DNA of 64,000 nucleotides from Octopus sinensis. Lineage: Eukaryota. The translations under genes and the position numbers were made by a program. The notes under the pieces are model-generated. The model was not told the origin of the DNA. It saw only the letters and a list, made by a program, of their open reading frames with translations, and made no database searches. Below are positions 5,207 to 58,278 of the stretch, piece by piece; within the stretch, counting starts at the first letter, position 1, and each line of letters opens with the position of its first letter. The DNA lies in NCBI RefSeq assembly GCF_006345805.1, contig NC_042999.1, forward strand, positions 147,932,001 through 147,996,000, read 5' to 3'.

Positions 5207-7250
5207 TTAAATCATTCCTATATGGGAGACACTTTGTGTAAGGGCCAACAATCTGTCTTTTTCTGATACACTAGTACTGTGAAGTTCGGCGTCAGTGGAT
5301 CTCATAACTTCCACAGCCGTGAAAGCTACCGAGTACAGTTTGCTATTTCCAATCAACTTGTGAAAGATCATGATTGATCGCATCCCAGTCTGCGTTATGG
5401 AGATCCATAGTGTCACTGGATTTGATCTTTCGCTGGTAGAATCTCAGATCACAGAGAACCATGTCATGCTCTGAGAGTAGTGGTGTTTTTTCCATTGCAA
5501 TATTCAGGATAGTATCAGTGTGGTTACTGAACACTAGGTCCAAGGTGTTTTTGTGACACCTTGTTGGTTCGCGAACAAATTGGATCAGGGAAAACTCATC
5601 CATGAAATCAAAAAGCAATTTGATTCCTTCCTTATGAGAGGTTGAGGTAGAAAAACCTGGTTTCAAACTGTTTGTGGACCAATCAGCATTGGAAAGGTTG
5701 AAGTCCCCCATCATAATATGTTGTCAGCATGACATTGATGGATGAATCACTTAATACTGTTGAGGCATTCCATGAAGCGTAGTAGAGGAGTTAGAGGTGG
5801 TCTATAAAGCCCATCTACAATTAAATTGTTGGTTTTATTAAACACAGAAGCTGTTTCACAGTAGCTATTGGTAAATACGTCTATTGATTCAGCCGAAAAA
5901 GAATCGTGCATGAAAATGGCCGTCCCAACCTTTCTTCTGCCGACACTATCTGCACGGATGGCTGTACAATTCTTCAGTATCACCTCAGCTTCCAAGTGGA
6001 GGTTATTGAGATGGGTCTCTGTGAAGACGAAAAAAGGGATATGGTGTGGATGGTCATTAACCGAGTCCTCAATAAATTGGATTTTCCACTTTTGGGCATT
6101 GGTGGAAGGGCTGATGCCTTGTGCATTGAACAAAATGTTGAGGCGATAGCGGTGACTGATTTTGACTGTTTTGGTGATTTGCTTGTTACTGGCAGCAATG
6201 GGAGTTTCTGCAATAGGGTTGTGGTGGGGTGGCATTGTGTGATGGCTAGAATGTTCTTTTGTAGCTCTTTCGCCAGATTCATCATGGCTACAAAAGAATT
6301 CCGCTTGGAGAACTGAAAATGTTTATGGTTGTAGGTTTTGCATTGGTTATGGATCCCGTTTATATTTTTATTTGTGCGACGAGTCCCCGGGAGATAGGTA
6401 AATGGATGATTATTCTGTAGACATGATCTGTTACGCTGGGAATAGCGGGAGACTCTAGGGTCCTGTGTAACATGAGTGTCTTTTTTTTTCAAATTTGATT
6501 TAGTATTTGGTGAGGGTGGTTGTGGAGTGGTTTTAGATTGTGCACATTGGTGGTAGCGGCTGTTGTGACTAAGAATTGAACGTTTAGTCCCTGGTATGAA
6601 TGAATTTTCAATCAGTCAGTGCACAACCTCTTGCGTAGTGAATAGCGGCATTTTGGGGGCTTCGTGCATAGGTTGCGGGAGGCATAGATTTTAATTTGTG
6701 TACATTTGCGTTTGGCAAATTCATTAAGGGGTCTTCAAGTAAGCATTTAGTTGGTTGATCACAAATTGAGATAGTAGTAGGTTGAAGCTGTATCTGTTGC
6801 TGTTTTGAGGTTATTGATGTTGTTATTGTGATTCTTGTTGCTGTAATTGTTGCTGCTGGTGAAGATTTGATAGGTGGGTAACAAACTCTGGTTGAATTGG
6901 CTATGAACAACTGAAATCTGAGAAGCTGACCGTTTCATTAAGTAGGTCATCAATTGTGGATGAATTAAGGAATGTTAAAGTTTGAGGCTGTGTCATTTGT
7001 TCTTGCTGTGCTTGTTCTTGTTGATGCTGTGGTGATTGCTGTTGTTTTTGCTGAGGTGGTCGTTGTTGTTGCTGTGATGATTGTTGTTGTTGGTGTGGTG
7101 GCTGTTGTTGCTGCCGAGGTGGTTGCTGTTGTTACCGTGGTGGTTGTTGTTGCCGTAGCGGTGGTTTATACTGTTCGTGTTGACCAGTATTTGAAGAGAA
7201 AACACGTTGGAGTTTTTCAATCGTGTATCGTATATAAACGAGCAAAAATA
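5207..7250 (-). mobile_element. CR1-like LINE, 5' portion: low-complexity/zinc-finger ORF1 plus APE endonuclease, frameshifted and 3'-truncated
   Basis: APE motifs FNAQG, FTETHL, RAD..GR.K.GTAIF, LYRPP, MGDFN, PTR..NTLDLVFSN and SEHDMV (ORFs 5747-6235 and 5343-5714). ORF1 traces PPKCRYSLRKRLCTD..KFIH look like a CCCH finger. Confidence 0.85.
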
Positions 7251-12949: not shown

Positions 12950-13500
12950 GGTTGCCCAGGCCAGCCTAACTACCTCTTTACATCCCTTCCGATCCTCCAT
13001 TATTGTTTTTAGGTCTTCAACTTGGCATATAACATCTTCTGCAAGGTGTTGTATATACGTCTTCCGTGGTCTCCAGCCGCTGTGGTATGATGATTTGGTG
13101 TCCACAGCAACACATTACTCACAGGTTCTTCTTTACTTCTCCAGCAGAAGCCAGCAAACCGCAATCTCCACTCTTGGATGGTTGATGAGACAGTTGATAC
13201 ATTCCCATATAACCGTTGTTTGTTAGTTGCTCCCTCCAAGAGGTGTTGACCACTGCACGTAACATTCCGGTACAGGCACCGTCCAACTCTCTTGGTGAGA
13301 GACCAAGTCGGAAATCCATATACAAGCACAAATTCAACAACTACTCTGAACAATTCTCTCTCCAGTTTATGTAGAAGGGTTGATCTCCACATTGTTCGAA
13401 GACCGTCTATAGCTGCCCAAGCCTTAGCAACGCAAGATTTAATATCTTTTTCAGTGGACACGATATTACTGCCTAGGTAAGAAAAATCGTTGAAAATAAC
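12950..13500 (-). pseudogene. RTE-clade LINE ORF2 C-terminus, frameshifted
   Basis: DFSYLGS..STEKDIK..AKAWAA, VEFVLVYG..TWSLT, LDGACTGMLR, RLRFAG, LLWTP, GRPRKTY. Confidence 0.85.
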
Positions 13501-13524
13501 ATCTACAATAATAGTTGCCAATTT

Positions 13525-27268: not shown

Positions 27269-27818
27269 TTGTATATATATATGATATATATGTATATATA
27301 TATGTATATATATATATATATATGTATGTATGTACATATATATATATATATTATATATATATGTGTGTGTGTGTGTGTGTATGTATATATATATATATAT
27401 GCAACTTATAAACAAGGGCAAAGGAAATTATTTCTATGCCAATTTGCTGATAACAGACTTTTAAATCGTCAATTTCCACATATTATTATATACCCACTAC
27501 AGAAATACGTTGTGCTGAAGTCGAGGAAAGCTAGCCAACAGATTTTTTTTTAAAGTTCGTTATTTCCATATTGAATCAATTTAGGAATTAATCTTATAAT
27601 AGATTTTTTCCTCTTCAGTAGAAAATATGAATAGAAATAAATGAAATACTTACATGCGCCCATGGAAAAAGAAAACCGAAGCAAAAATCATGAGTACACA
27701 TAAGTACCCCAGATATATCTAAATATAAAATCCTTTGGTTAGCCTCAGCACACGTGTGAACTGTTCTCCACTACAGCTTATAGTTGTTACCAGTTCCTAT
27801 AGCGAATAGTAATAAATC

Positions 27819-27876
27819 TACTACTAATATAGGATGAAGTTTTTTTACAGAAAAAATTCATCCTATATTAGTAGTA
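27819..27876. repeat. Perfect 20-bp-arm hairpin adjoining (TA)n
   Basis: TACTACTAATATAGGATGAA...TTCATCCTATATTAGTAGTA. Confidence 0.85.
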
Positions 27877-27896
27877 TATATATATATATATTTGTA

Positions 27897-27929
<33 letters not shown>

Positions 27930-27934
<5 letters not shown>

Positions 27935-28304
27935 ATAATATTAGGGAATATATCCAAATTTACATGGAAAAAAATCAGATTTAGGATTAAATCCATTTTA
28001 TAGTAAAATATTATAAAATATTTTTGAGACAAAACCACTATTTTGCAAAAAAAACAAGGAAAGACTTAATCAATACATAAAATTAATAATATTCAAAAAA
28101 CCGCACTACAATCGTTTCTTGTCTTGATCGACAATCTCAGGTGGACTTCCAATAATTCAGTTTTGTACTGATTATTGAAGTCCACCGAAGATTGTCGATC
28201 AAGACAAGAAACGATTGTAGTGGCGGTTTTTTTGACTATTATAAATTTTATGTATTGATTAAGTCTTTCCTTGTGTGCAAATATTGTTTTTTTCAATAAT
28301 ATTT

Positions 28305-28308
<4 letters not shown>
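27930..28308. mobile_element. TA-embedded fold-back element (PLE pLTR-like) with a hammerhead motif in each arm
   Basis: Inverted arms of about 145 bp around a 7-nt loop (28161-28167). The consensus of both arms is CCAC-CUGAAGA-UUGUC(GAUCAA)GACAA-GAAA-C(GAUU)G-UA^-GUGG. Confidence 0.8.
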
Positions 28309-28335
<27 letters not shown>

Positions 28336-28336
28336 G

Positions 28337-28415
<79 letters not shown>

Positions 28416-28431
28416 ATGTATATGTATTTAT

Positions 28432-28467
<36 letters not shown>

Positions 28468-28477
28468 GTATATATAT

Positions 28478-28515
<38 letters not shown>

Positions 28516-29614
28516 GTATGTAATATATATATGCACGCATACACGCATATACACACATAGATTACACACACACACACACACATATATATATCATTGAAAC
28601 TAAAAAGGTTTCTTAAAGTGTTATTCTAAGAGGTTTTCTAGATGTTTTTATATAAAACCCATGTTAGCTTTTATTGAACAGATCTCTGAAGAAAGACATT
28701 CAAGCCATTTCTGTTCTGCTTAGTGCGTATTTGAAAATATTTTCTAAGACGACAGCGTATGATTTCTAAGAGTTAGCTGGTATTGCTAGACAGGCTGGTT
28801 GCGAAACCTGAAAGAGTTTCCTGCGTTTCTTTCTCTGTCCTGTGTTACTAACGTTAAAATAGAAAAGCAATAGAGATGAACAAGTTTTAAAATAAGAAAT
28901 CATAGCACGCGTCGTATCAGAAGTATTATTATACGACAAAAGATGTGAAGGTACGTAGCTTTATTAGATAGGAAAACAAAATTGTTACAAATCTACTTGC
29001 CTTTTTAACAATTTAAGGTTATCCATGAAATCAATCACAACAAAACGAAAATGTAACAGAAATTGCTAAATACACGAAATTTATATCTTCATTATGCAAT
29101 CTATTTCGTTCGTAACACAAATTGGTGCGAATAAATGAAGATAAATTACAATAAACGAATAGAGCAAGGTAATTATGGCATTCACTCTACTGATCTTGGG
29201 ATTTTAGAGAATATCTAATTGCTAAATCATCGATCAATGACGTCTCGTTTGTCCACCTCACACAAATATTACTGTCATTCTTCACTCCTTTGCGGCTTTA
29301 ATTATAATTGATATTGAAGTCTCTATGTATAGGAATATAAACGGGGGAAGAAATGTAGTTTGTGCTGCATTAGTTTAGCTGGTTGTAAATGACGATTTTT
29401 GAACTTCAGACTTGAGAAACTAGTGTGACAGGTACAATTTGTTATTAAGCTAACAAGAAGATATACTCTTTCTTCCCTTATACCCTGCAACGTTACTACC
29501 TATTGTATCCTACTGCAATTCATCGTTGTATAACTGAAGTTCTTAATCCATTATTACTGCATTACATCTGCAGAGCGCAAATAGCATGTGTATATATGTA
29601 TGTATATCATAGAA

Positions 29615-36512: not shown

Positions 36513-37496
36513 TTTTTTTTTTTCTTCTTTCAAATTTTCTTCCATTTCTTGCCGAGTGTCTTCCCGACTCCTAGGGCAAAGAAACTCAGTGTATATTGGT
36601 AGGCCATTAAACCAAACTCAGTAGTTCGTTCTTTTTTTTTTTTTTTTTAAAGTTAAATTAAAATGCATGAGCAGCAACAGTTCTCACATCGACAATGCTC
36701 TTCTCAATACGTGTGATGTACCAGTTAAGACAATCTTTTGCACTTCTTGCAGGGATGGTAAGCCAGGGATCATTCTCATATAATTTTCGGTTCCCTTCTT
36801 GATCATTCCTAGTGCTCCTACGATCACTGGTATTGTAACCGCCTTGAGATGCCACATTTTCTCAATTTCAATGAGTAGGTCTTTATATTTTCTGAGCTTG
36901 TCAAACTCTTTCGCTGAGATATTATGATCACAGGGGATGCTCATGTCGATCAATAAGCAAACTTTATTGTTTTGGTCTTTCACACAATATCTGGTTTATT
37001 GGCCTTGATGGTTCGGTCTGTATGTACTGGAAAGTCCCACAGAATGGTTACATTTTCTCCTTCAGTTACAGCCTCAGGGTGGTGATTATACCACTTGTCG
37101 GCAGTTTTGATATTGTAATGCCGACTTATTAGCCAGTGGAGATATTGGCCAACTCTGTCATGTCTTAATTTATACTCCACTGGTGCTAAGACTTTACATC
37201 CAGAGATTAGGTGGTCCACTGTTTCAATCATGTCGTTGCAGAATCGGCATTTTGGGTCTGCTCCATTTTTCATCACATTGGCCTGGTAGTTCCGGGTTGA
37301 TAGGCTTTGGTCTTGAGCAGCCAGGATGAAACCTTCGCTCTCTGCTTTTAGCCCTGAGCTCCGCAGCCACTGATGGGTTTGCTTCTGGTCAACATCAGCT
37401 TGTTTGCTGCGGGTCACATATTTGCCGTGCAGAGGTTTCTCCTCCCACCTATCAGCCAATTGCTCGTGCGCTTTTTTCATTGCCATCATTTTCACC

Positions 37497-37500
<4 letters not shown>
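36513..37500 (-). mobile_element. R4/Dong-clade non-LTR retrotransposon, 5'-truncated, inserted in (TAA)n
   Basis: KPLHG, EGFILAAQDQ, CRFC-x8-H-x4-C zinc knuckle, RHD, ILWDF, PDIV..LID..IP...K..KY restriction-like endonuclease and GALG. One frameshift near 36981. A-tail and TAA repeats on both sides. Confidence 0.9.
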
Positions 37501-37545
<45 letters not shown>

Positions 37546-55119: not shown

Positions 55120-55560
55120 GTCTCTTTGCTTGAATGTATGTATAAATATGCAATGTTAAATGGCAAGATCGTGTTCGAAATAGTGAGTTACTGGAGAGGT
55201 GTGAGATCAGTGGTATTGAAACATTTTTGAGTAAGATACAAATGCGGTGGGTCTGGTCATCTCGTAAGAATGGATGACTCAAGAGTTCCAAAGCAGCGTT
55301 TTTATGGGCAATTGACAAATTCTTCCCGTCCAACAGGGCGTCCTCTTCTTCGTTACAAGGACAAACTAAAAGACAATCTAAAGCGTTGTGACATTGCTCT
55401 GAGCTCCTGGGACAGTGCAGCAGGGGATCGCAGCAAATGGAGGAAAATGTGCTTTCTAAAGACTAGAGAATTTGAAAGTAACCGTCTTCGTCATAGGGAC
55501 GCCCTTCGTGCAAATTTGAAAGCAACGCATCAGCAAATCCACCAAACAATGACTGTGTGC
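55120..55560 (+). pseudogene. RTE (BovB-like) ORF2 C-terminus, running into the gap
   Basis: VKWQDRVRNSELLER...MRW, RMDDSRVPKQ.FYGQL...GRPLLRYKDKLK.NLK...W...A.DRSKWR. Confidence 0.85.
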
Positions 55561-55660
55561 NNNNNNNNNNNNNNNNNNNNNNNNNNNNNNNNNNNNNNNN
55601 NNNNNNNNNNNNNNNNNNNNNNNNNNNNNNNNNNNNNNNNNNNNNNNNNNNNNNNNNNNN
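55561..55660. other. Assembly gap (100 N)
   Basis: Run of N. Confidence 1.
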
Positions 55661-55681
55661 ACGCTAATTTCTCCTCACTCA

Positions 55682-55734
<53 letters not shown>

Positions 55735-56695
55735 TTCTCTTCTCATTACCCGTCTCTCTTTTTCTCTGTAGTTTGCACTGGACATTTTTGAGAACCCTAA
55801 ATACACTACATGATGATAAACAATACTCTGGTGCTCCTACTGGGTTACGATATAACTCATGTTCATTCCGTAAACATGAGAACTATAATACCTTGTGTGG
55901 ATTGTACTTTTTTTATGTGTCAAGATAAGGAAATACAAAATAATTTCACACTGATAAAAGCTTTATTGAAGATCATTGATAATTATAAACGTATTATAAA
56001 ACTGATTTAAAAATTATAAAAAATTATTCATTGGCAATAATACATAGAGACTTTACTGTATAAAAAGTTTGATAATGTAGAGTATCAGGCAATTTGCAAA
56101 TAAATGAATTATATGTAAAAATGAAACCTCAAGTTGAAAAGAAATAACATAGTAAAAGAACGATTACAACTTGAGGTTTCAAGTTGAAAAGAAATAACAT
56201 AGTAAAAGAACGATTACAACTTCAAAATTTAATTGCCTTTTAGCCTGATATAGCTACAATCATATAATCTCACAACTTACAGGTCACCAAAGAGTCTAGG
56301 AAGGTTTATAATCTGTCATTAAATACACATTAAACTGAGAAGTGGGATTTTGTCAGTAAAATTAATTAATAATCATAACTTTTTCAGTTGATATGAATCA
56401 TTTGAGAGGGAATATTTCTGGGAAAATTAATCTTTTTATTTAGATATTTAGAACATATATGATTAATGTAAGTATTTTAAAAGTATAAATTTAATATGTT
56501 TAAACGTGGCATATAAATCTTTAGAGAACAAATAAGGATAATAAAAATAAGGAAGCAACAAATGAGACTCGAGAGTTAGTCACATGGTTAGAATTTGCAA
56601 AATTTAATTGTGGAATTAAGCAGTTAATGAAATCAATTTAAATCAAATTAATCATTAGTAATTAACATTGTAGCAAACATCTTGTATTTAACATG

Positions 56696-57838: not shown

Positions 57839-57914
<76 letters not shown>

Positions 57915-57919
<5 letters not shown>

Positions 57920-58184
57920 AATATTAGGGAATAAATCCAAATTTACAGGGAAAAATCAGATTTAGGATTGAATCCAATTTTATAATAAAATATAATATAA
58001 TATTATTAGAGACAAAACTACTATTATGCAAATCAAACAAAGAAAGACTTAATTCCAATACATAAAAATTTTATATAAATTAAATATAATTAAGATATCT
58101 TAATTATATTTAATTTATATAAAATTTTTATGTATTGGATTAAGTCTTTCTTTGTTTGATTTGCATAATAGTGGTTGTGTCTAA
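57915..58184. mobile_element. TA-embedded fold-back element, same family as 27930-28308, spacer-less palindrome
   Basis: Shares TATTAGGGAATA.ATCCAAATTTACA.GGAAAAA.TCAGATTTAGGATT...GAAAGACTTAAT. Arms of about 90 bp (58006-58184) are centred on GAT|ATC at 58096/58097. Confidence 0.85.
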
Positions 58185-58187
58185 TTA

Positions 58188-58189
<2 letters not shown>

Positions 58190-58278
<89 letters not shown>

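Follow-up and report, generated by a model that had tools for sequence, protein, structure and literature searches.

In a stretch of 64,000 nt from the Octopus sinensis genome (hereafter the window, by which we mean the whole stretch of DNA that was analysed), a short fold-back bearing a damaged hammerhead ribozyme motif in each arm lies between two (TA)n tracts, and the question raised by this locus is how such a structure was made and from which molecule. A sequence-only reading had described it as two inverted arms around a 7-nt loop, bounded by TA tracts, with one base missing from the hammerhead of each arm. On alignment, inverted arms of about 150 nt do occupy 28011-28161 and 28167-28308, and the TA tracts do bound the fold-back, but the loop is of 5 nt and not of 7. 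The whole element is asymmetric, because positions 27931-28010 extend the left arm only and the right arm is without those 80 nt. The features considered below are the following.

27875..27931, no strand: left (TA)n target tract, read from the window sequence
27931..28161, minus strand: long arm (arm B), copied in sense from the spliced leader, of which it spans position 16 up to the fixed end B, the distal one (about 255)
27931..28010, minus strand: the 80-nt tail between fixed ends A and B, present on one arm only
28104..28144, minus strand: type I hammerhead motif of arm B, with two single-base deletions relative to the family
28154..28173, no strand: head-to-head centre, where both strands keep remnants of exon 1 (23 nt), by comparison with intron-containing copies
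28154/28153 (minus) and 28173/28174 (plus): exon 1-exon 2 splice junctions of the window copy, by comparison with intron-containing copies
28161..28308, plus strand: short arm (arm A), likewise copied in sense from the spliced leader and stopping at the fixed end A, the proximal one (about 172-176)
28182..28223, plus strand: type I hammerhead motif of arm A, with one single-base deletion, in the core
28305..28532, no strand: right (TA)n target tract, read from the window sequence
57914..58201, no strand: second A+B head-to-head insertion, a copy from the same family in (TA)n, more diverged and truncated below the hammerhead

Each arm does hold a hammerhead remnant; the loss of a single base is right for the right arm, whereas the left arm lacks two, and as assembled the hammerhead core is broken in both. 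Relative to a copy of the same subfamily, the window arms carry 24 deletions, 5 substitutions and 1 insertion, and palindromic arms are rich in deletions in this assembly (123 deletions versus 14 insertions in 98 arms). Given these two excesses, a consensus error is likely in the window hairpin, as had been supposed for the one-base losses. The mean number of deleted bases over the stretch that was scored was 1.3 in other palindromic arms (n = 98) and 0.5 in solo or unequal arms (n = 16), with p 0.036, one subfamily being the scoring reference, so that fixed differences enter this comparison. At position 28136, most or all of the depth in contigs of four public runs, which mix all family copies, shows the family base. 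Judged from these alignments, the broken cores of the window copy are probably deletions of the assembly consensus. The unusual richness in deletions of the window copy would also suit a palindrome that is, as a whole, a long-read assembly chimera, but the same two fixed ends occur in hundreds of loci with unrelated, non-mirrored flanks, and we give this explanation next to no credence.

When the bases missing from the two arms are restored from each other, as had been proposed, the resulting minimal type I hammerhead is the exact family sequence: the 45-nt motif has 1,593 exact matches genome-wide, and its reversed control has 0. Family members also keep CUGANGA and GAAA, in agreement with what had been expected of them, the core (both motifs, stems I-III and an NUH site) being intact in 97 of the 117 family arms examined. 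Rfam gave 0 matches at gathering score in the window; at E < = 10, the region 27800-28400 gave 26 matches, none of them to a hammerhead family, and the microRNA matches among these were rejected as generic hairpin matches. With the hammerhead fold imposed, the 43-nt motif reaches -5.4 kcal/mol, versus a minimum of -6.5 kcal/mol, and in a 56-nt context it folds into another structure (z 0.42); a weak stem III is usual for motifs of this kind (PMC4209133). No mapped arm starts at the predicted cut (leader position 72). The arms cross this site, hence the RNA that was copied was uncut there. The hammerheads of the window insertion occupy opposite strands and, in a read-through RNA, would pair with each other as one long hairpin; therefore no function is expected and we predict that they do nothing. 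The presence of one hammerhead in each arm is a by-product of one region having been copied twice.

We then considered the family to which the window copy belongs. A DNA search of the genome with the window element gave 708 candidates, of which the best 40 were scored, with four duplicate loci (L011, L013, L021 and L023) removed; the family is large and young, and the window hairpin is one of many hundreds of short remnants. Some pairs of opposite-strand hammerheads are kilobases apart, and the stretches between them carry an ORF with a reverse transcriptase (RT) followed by a C-terminal nuclease, in line with the Penelope-type origin that had been suggested. Translation of 11 long loci showed RT motifs and YIG, with no unbroken ORF among the 11, and the broken frames possibly come from the same assembly errors. 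In a predicted structure model of modest quality (mean pLDDT 60.5), residues 429-541 matched the GIY-YIG domain of I-TevI with Z 10.1 and rmsd 2.5 over 90 aligned residues, whereas the matches of the RT palm were weaker (Z about 5-6). Pfam missed both the RT and the nuclease domain in the parent protein and found GIY-YIG in only 1 of 5 homologues, below the cut-off; Foldseek with the same model returned nothing at E < = 0.001. The protein has a DKT motif and a CxCX5C linker, past which the sole CxxC was found at residue 518, with a CxH near residue 546 and no internal CCHH cysteines in the nuclease; at the position of RWK, present in most homologues covering that region, it has KWK. Between the RT thumb and the linker there is an asparagine-rich insert (37% N, residues 212-340 of the fragment L062:680-2362), which 3 of 12 aligned homologues also have, at varying places, and inserts of this type are described for rotifer Penelope elements (PMC3846280).

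The unit is 5.7 kb long in L066, one of the tandem or pseudo-LTR copies (the others being L074, L083 and L091), and its ORF begins about 60 nt past end B; in the tandem long copies the 80-nt tail between A and B continues into the ORF-bearing body. Five loci (L060, L063, L080, L084 and L090) contain direct repeats of about 1 kb inside the long 3' region, in varying number, which include exon 1 and its donor. Judged from its motifs, the parent is an EN+ Penelope-like element, RT then GIY-YIG, with the features of the Hydra clade as this was defined by Craig et al. 2021 (C-terminal GIY-YIG, DKT, CxCX5C, and CxxC plus CxH around conserved E and N; PMC8557442), and a placement in that clade fits these motifs. 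An identification as Neptune was dropped, since the definition of the Hydra clade fits instead.

The comparison of long with short copies explains what was copied. In long copies a 23-nt first exon is followed by a GTAAGT donor, a GT-AG intron (about 1.3 kb in one subfamily and 1.8 kb in the others) whose acceptor is a pyrimidine run and AG, and the hammerhead exon. In short copies, including that of the window, exon 1 is joined exactly to the hammerhead exon and the intron is gone, so that the RNA origin assumed by the sequence-only reading is borne out by an intron removed precisely at GT-AG. Exact counts over the genome gave 1,434 spliced junctions versus 723 unspliced acceptors, with 0 for the controls, and a second donor, 4 nt downstream, accounts for 56 further exact junctions. 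Of the 1,434 spliced arms, only 16 continue by exact match upstream of the first leader base, and most arms start within leader positions 1-26; position 1 is hence a putative transcription start, as far as arm ends can indicate it. Against L066:5700-7900, the public contigs of four putative RNA runs showed no joint at the intron, in a cover that was only fragmentary.

In six loci (L092, L199, L200, L203, L204 and L205) the intron is removed and the sequence extends 100-370 nt upstream of the usual start; these are rare and may derive from splicing of the downstream repeat or of a read-through RNA. For nine spliced loci that read past the start, neither the RT nor the nuclease portion of the ORF was present within about 6 kb; in one of them the partner arm included the first 200 nt of the body.

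Three variants of exon 1 pair with three variants further downstream, both in short and in long copies and with some cross-combinations. The head-to-head centres seldom agree: 37 loci gave 32 distinct ones, 4 of the 37 were identical, and the commonest geometry occurs in all three subfamilies. From the matching subfamilies and the varied centres it follows that the short copies were made afresh from the RNA of the parent. The window sequence thus reads as the spliced 5' leader of an autonomous element of the same genome, and the earlier proposal of a separate non-autonomous element is not supported. In its strongest form that proposal would have an element, similar to a SINE or a retrozyme, arise once from the spliced leader and propagate itself as a hairpin unit, and it can point to spliced arms exceeding unspliced ones two to one and to the few centres that recur. 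It should not, however, yield three matching subfamilies in short and long copies, nor two splice isoforms, nor so many different centres with the commonest geometry shared by the three subfamilies. Besides, the short copies do not carry what lies upstream of the start site, the 100 listed places on contig C1 showed no spliced units in direct tandem, and none of 103 loci was an A-to-G hyper-edited copy, as would mark a re-copied hairpin RNA. We therefore consider self-propagation quite improbable.

Two known classes of short element were rejected as well: a MITE or foldback DNA transposon, because the ends differ by a fixed 80 nt, the centres vary and the intron is removed, and a non-LTR retrozyme, because of the 0 direct spliced-spliced neighbours at the same 100 listed places. 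Six loci (L004, L069, L092 and L172-L174) have whole short insertions in tandem together with their flanks, which points to local or assembly duplication.

One of the copies also records splicing of a host RNA to the element. In L068 (G000:C1:96557100-96560400) two host exons, with canonical donors and 69 kb apart at their sources (G000:C1:88521525-88522711 and 88591997-88592109), are spliced to the acceptor of the element, in both arms of an A+B insertion, and we read this as exon trapping and subsequent retrotransposition. No Pfam match above the cut-off was obtained for the host ORF fragment. The acceptor-bearing copy that did the trapping was not found in the 200 kb downstream of the host exon, where there was only a truncated pair without acceptor.

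The ends of the insertions were considered next. We drew 40 loci in order from the first 100 listed spliced places, minus those already sampled, and in these position-picked loci 30 insertions were A+B, 6 were A only, 3 were B only and 1 was unclear, with no A+A or B+B insertion. The ends A and B are 80 nt apart on the leader (A at about 172-176, B at about 255). A (TA)n tract was present on both outer sides in 38 of the 40 copies, versus 7.9% of random window positions for a tract on one side, so that both the TA targeting and the flank bias expected for collected copies were found. Among long insertions 25 of 26 were A+B, and the remaining one (L084) is incomplete in the sampled stretch.

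In these long insertions the tail-less arm reaches further upstream in 14 cases (one of which, L067, is doubtful) and the tailed arm in 10, with 1 tie; L064, which is complex, and one 14-kb pair were left out of this scoring. The extra reach of the tail-less arm is up to several kb. In L037 and L098 the tailed arm is little more than the tail itself, and the arms overlap barely or not at all. Foreign sequence lies between the arms in L030:1571-2179 (about 600 nt) and L101:458-715 (about 260 nt), either captured at the junction or inserted later.

Regarding the template, head-to-head pairs on C1, taken from 100 spliced and 84 unspliced listed places, were spliced-spliced in 33 cases and unspliced-unspliced in 24, with 0 mixed pairs. 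The two arms agreed in subfamily in 54 of 54 loci (0.33 expected), and in 16 pairs both arms show the rare donor. Of 24 unpaired rare-donor arms none had a common-donor partner, only 4 of these arms being informative because most partners are truncated or absent. In 74 loci, 11 rare substitutions were common to both arms, versus a mean of 0.22 and a maximum of 3 in 1,000 shuffles, and 67 were present in one arm only. By all of these sequence comparisons both arms come from one RNA molecule. A 718-nt internal deletion common to both arms of a long insertion (L082:1787 and 3631) is another sign of one template.

For the head-to-head layout of rotifer Penelope elements, palindromes arising by self-priming on an antisense transcript have been proposed as an account of why introns are retained (PMC3846280), and the octopus layout is the same. 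An antisense template would nevertheless retain the intron, whereas 33 of the 57 pairs on C1 have lost it at the sense GT-AG, in both arms, and L068 has host exons spliced in; the proposal would be viable only if the spliced genomic copies were themselves transcribed antisense. We regard it as very improbable for this family.

The other explanation to be weighed starts from a sense RNA but from a single priming: a cDNA primed at B reaches the RNA 5' end, folds back and is copied as far as A, a nuclease then resolves the structure, and any asymmetry is due to later deletion. It accounts for the perfect agreement of the arms, for centres with no loop (e.g. L054) and for the tiny fold-backs of exon 1 alone seen in L181 and L187, and the tail is ascribed to nuclease resolution by Craig et al. 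(PMC8557442). Precisely, however, it predicts a tailed arm that is never the shorter one, while in 13-14 of 25 long insertions it is the tail-less arm that extends further; nor does it suit the 6 of 40 short loci in which a tail-less arm stands alone between TA tracts, or the two loci whose arms hardly overlap. Insertions of this kind exclude a simple fold-back of a tail-primed cDNA unless a deletion followed, and we hold single priming to be unlikely, though of some weight. The splice junction, the fixed ends, the agreement of the arms and the fact that either arm may be the longer are all read in the genomic copies as assembled.

The explanation that we prefer, and consider probable, is that the window element is a head-to-head pair of spliced leaders produced by two RT primings on one spliced sense RNA. 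In this case the protein of the element would nick a (TA)n tract on both strands, and the 3' end at either nick would prime a cDNA at one of the two internal sites, A or B, of the same sense RNA. The two cDNAs would extend toward the RNA 5' end and would then be joined head-to-head via short microhomology or a small fold-back, the hammerhead being carried along uncut. Priming at the leader of the spliced mRNA would give dead-end copies of 250-430 bp, while priming at the downstream repeat, whose copy of the intron would rarely be spliced, would give long copies that bear the ORF and keep the intron. The downstream intron is in fact seldom spliced (16 versus 723 exact matches), perhaps since the donor works only near the cap, and this would explain the retention of the intron without any antisense template.

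From the same copies we infer the start site, the dual priming, a strand displacement and the joining route, and several points count against two primings. A single RNA stretch would have to be copied twice, which would require strand displacement; the exon-1 fold-backs of L181 and L187 fit self-priming of a cDNA end; the asymmetric arms could result from post-insertion deletions at unstable palindrome centres or from assembly error; and the recurrent centres (those 4 among 37) speak against this explanation too. In the twin priming of L1 elements, a further nick allows another cDNA to be primed at an internal site of the RNA already in use, with an inversion as the outcome. L1 inversions are non-overlapping and begin from the poly(A) end, whereas the octopus copies start at two fixed internal sites and their arms usually overlap.

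Among described elements, the octopus family is closest to the Hydra clade, with which it shares RT then GIY-YIG, DKT, the CxCX5C linker and no CxxC inside the nuclease core, a canonical type I hammerhead near the 3' end, (TA)n targeting, and an inverted 5'-truncated copy, given there for Penelope-13_HM (PMC8557442). It differs in its unit of 5.7 kb or more (versus < 3 kb), its tail of 80 nt (versus 30-40), the asparagine-rich insert, the long 3' region with an intron of 1.3-1.8 kb and KWK for RWK, and its hammerhead, compared by eye, differs in sequence from the Hydra-1_oBim motif (PMC8557442). Inverted truncated copies and tails are hence already published, while spliced short copies are not mentioned in the sections of Craig et al. 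2021 that deal with these structures (PMC8557442).

For Poseidon of Anolis carolinensis, purified protein in vitro cuts and extends both strands of AT-rich targets on an uncut RNA template, with RT starting at two internal sites between which the tail lies (Frangieh et al. 2024, PMC11167929). The octopus family is similar in its two internal ends bounding a tail, in the copying of uncut RNA and in its AT-rich target; unlike it, Poseidon belongs to another clade and has the tail inside the ORF, and inverted arms and splicing are unaddressed in the relevant parts of that paper (PMC11167929).

Penelope of Drosophila virilis likewise has a start inside the pseudo-LTR, a short first exon and a 5' UTR intron abutting the hammerhead, as well as partial tandems and inverted ends (PMC2377424, PMC4209133). 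Its intron is of 75 bp, the retention is ascribed to selection, and intronless genomic copies go unreported in the corresponding sections of these papers (PMC2377424, PMC4209133), whereas in the octopus spliced arms are the majority.

Cervera and de la Pena 2014 (PMC4209133) described dual minimal hammerheads in Schistosoma, on opposite strands and 100-700 bp apart, and traced them to truncated Penelope-like elements; these pairs are the general form of what was observed in the window hairpin, and the passages describing them do not link them to splicing, fixed ends or priming. Metazoan non-LTR retrozymes resemble the octopus copies in being small, non-coding, provided with a type I hammerhead and related to Penelope pseudo-LTRs, but they are direct tandem units, whereas the octopus copies are head-to-head, keep the splice junction of the parent and track its subfamilies (bioRxiv 10.64898/2026.07.22.740005, in the portion describing these units). 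In the literature searched, the scope of which left out Arkhipova 2003 and 2006 and Evgen'ev and Arkhipova 2005, there was no report of spliced Penelope leader copies or of twin priming for these elements.

Other features of the window were recorded apart from this argument. A different high-copy repeat (27410-27862; 2,001 candidates, best 40 scored) adjoins the left TA tract. Its copies are flanked by TA and include partial arms in tandem and in inverted arrangement, which would suit a further family of Penelope type, and 3 of the 4 copies inspected have a CUGANGA-like half core. Frame fragments at 5747-6615, 13009-13524, 36980-37540 and 55231-55791 resemble, by eye, remnants of a LINE endonuclease or RT, and a run of N lies near 55560-55670; a general repeat search of the window was swamped by TA tracts.

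Taken singly the window insertion is ordinary, and its value lies in the family, which offers young products in their thousands, marked internally by subfamily, splice state, rare donor and host exons in ways that separate the models. These markers indicate a sense, spliceable template, an origin of both arms from one molecule, and that either arm may be the longer. In our best reading, the family speaks against antisense self-priming as published and suggests why the intron is retained.

More generally, we incline, with due caution, to see these insertions as a record of Penelope integration, in which a pair of proteins primes both TA strands at two sites of one sense RNA and in which the repeat that is bound would alone decide the product: a dead spliced leader, an intron-keeping element or a chimera with host exons. 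How inverted ends form and why an intron is retained despite an RNA stage are both stated as open, in PMC8557442 and PMC3846280, respectively. If our reading is true, it would settle both, with the intron being spliced next to the cap and almost never downstream, and Penelope elements would be a source of host retrocopies through exon trapping.
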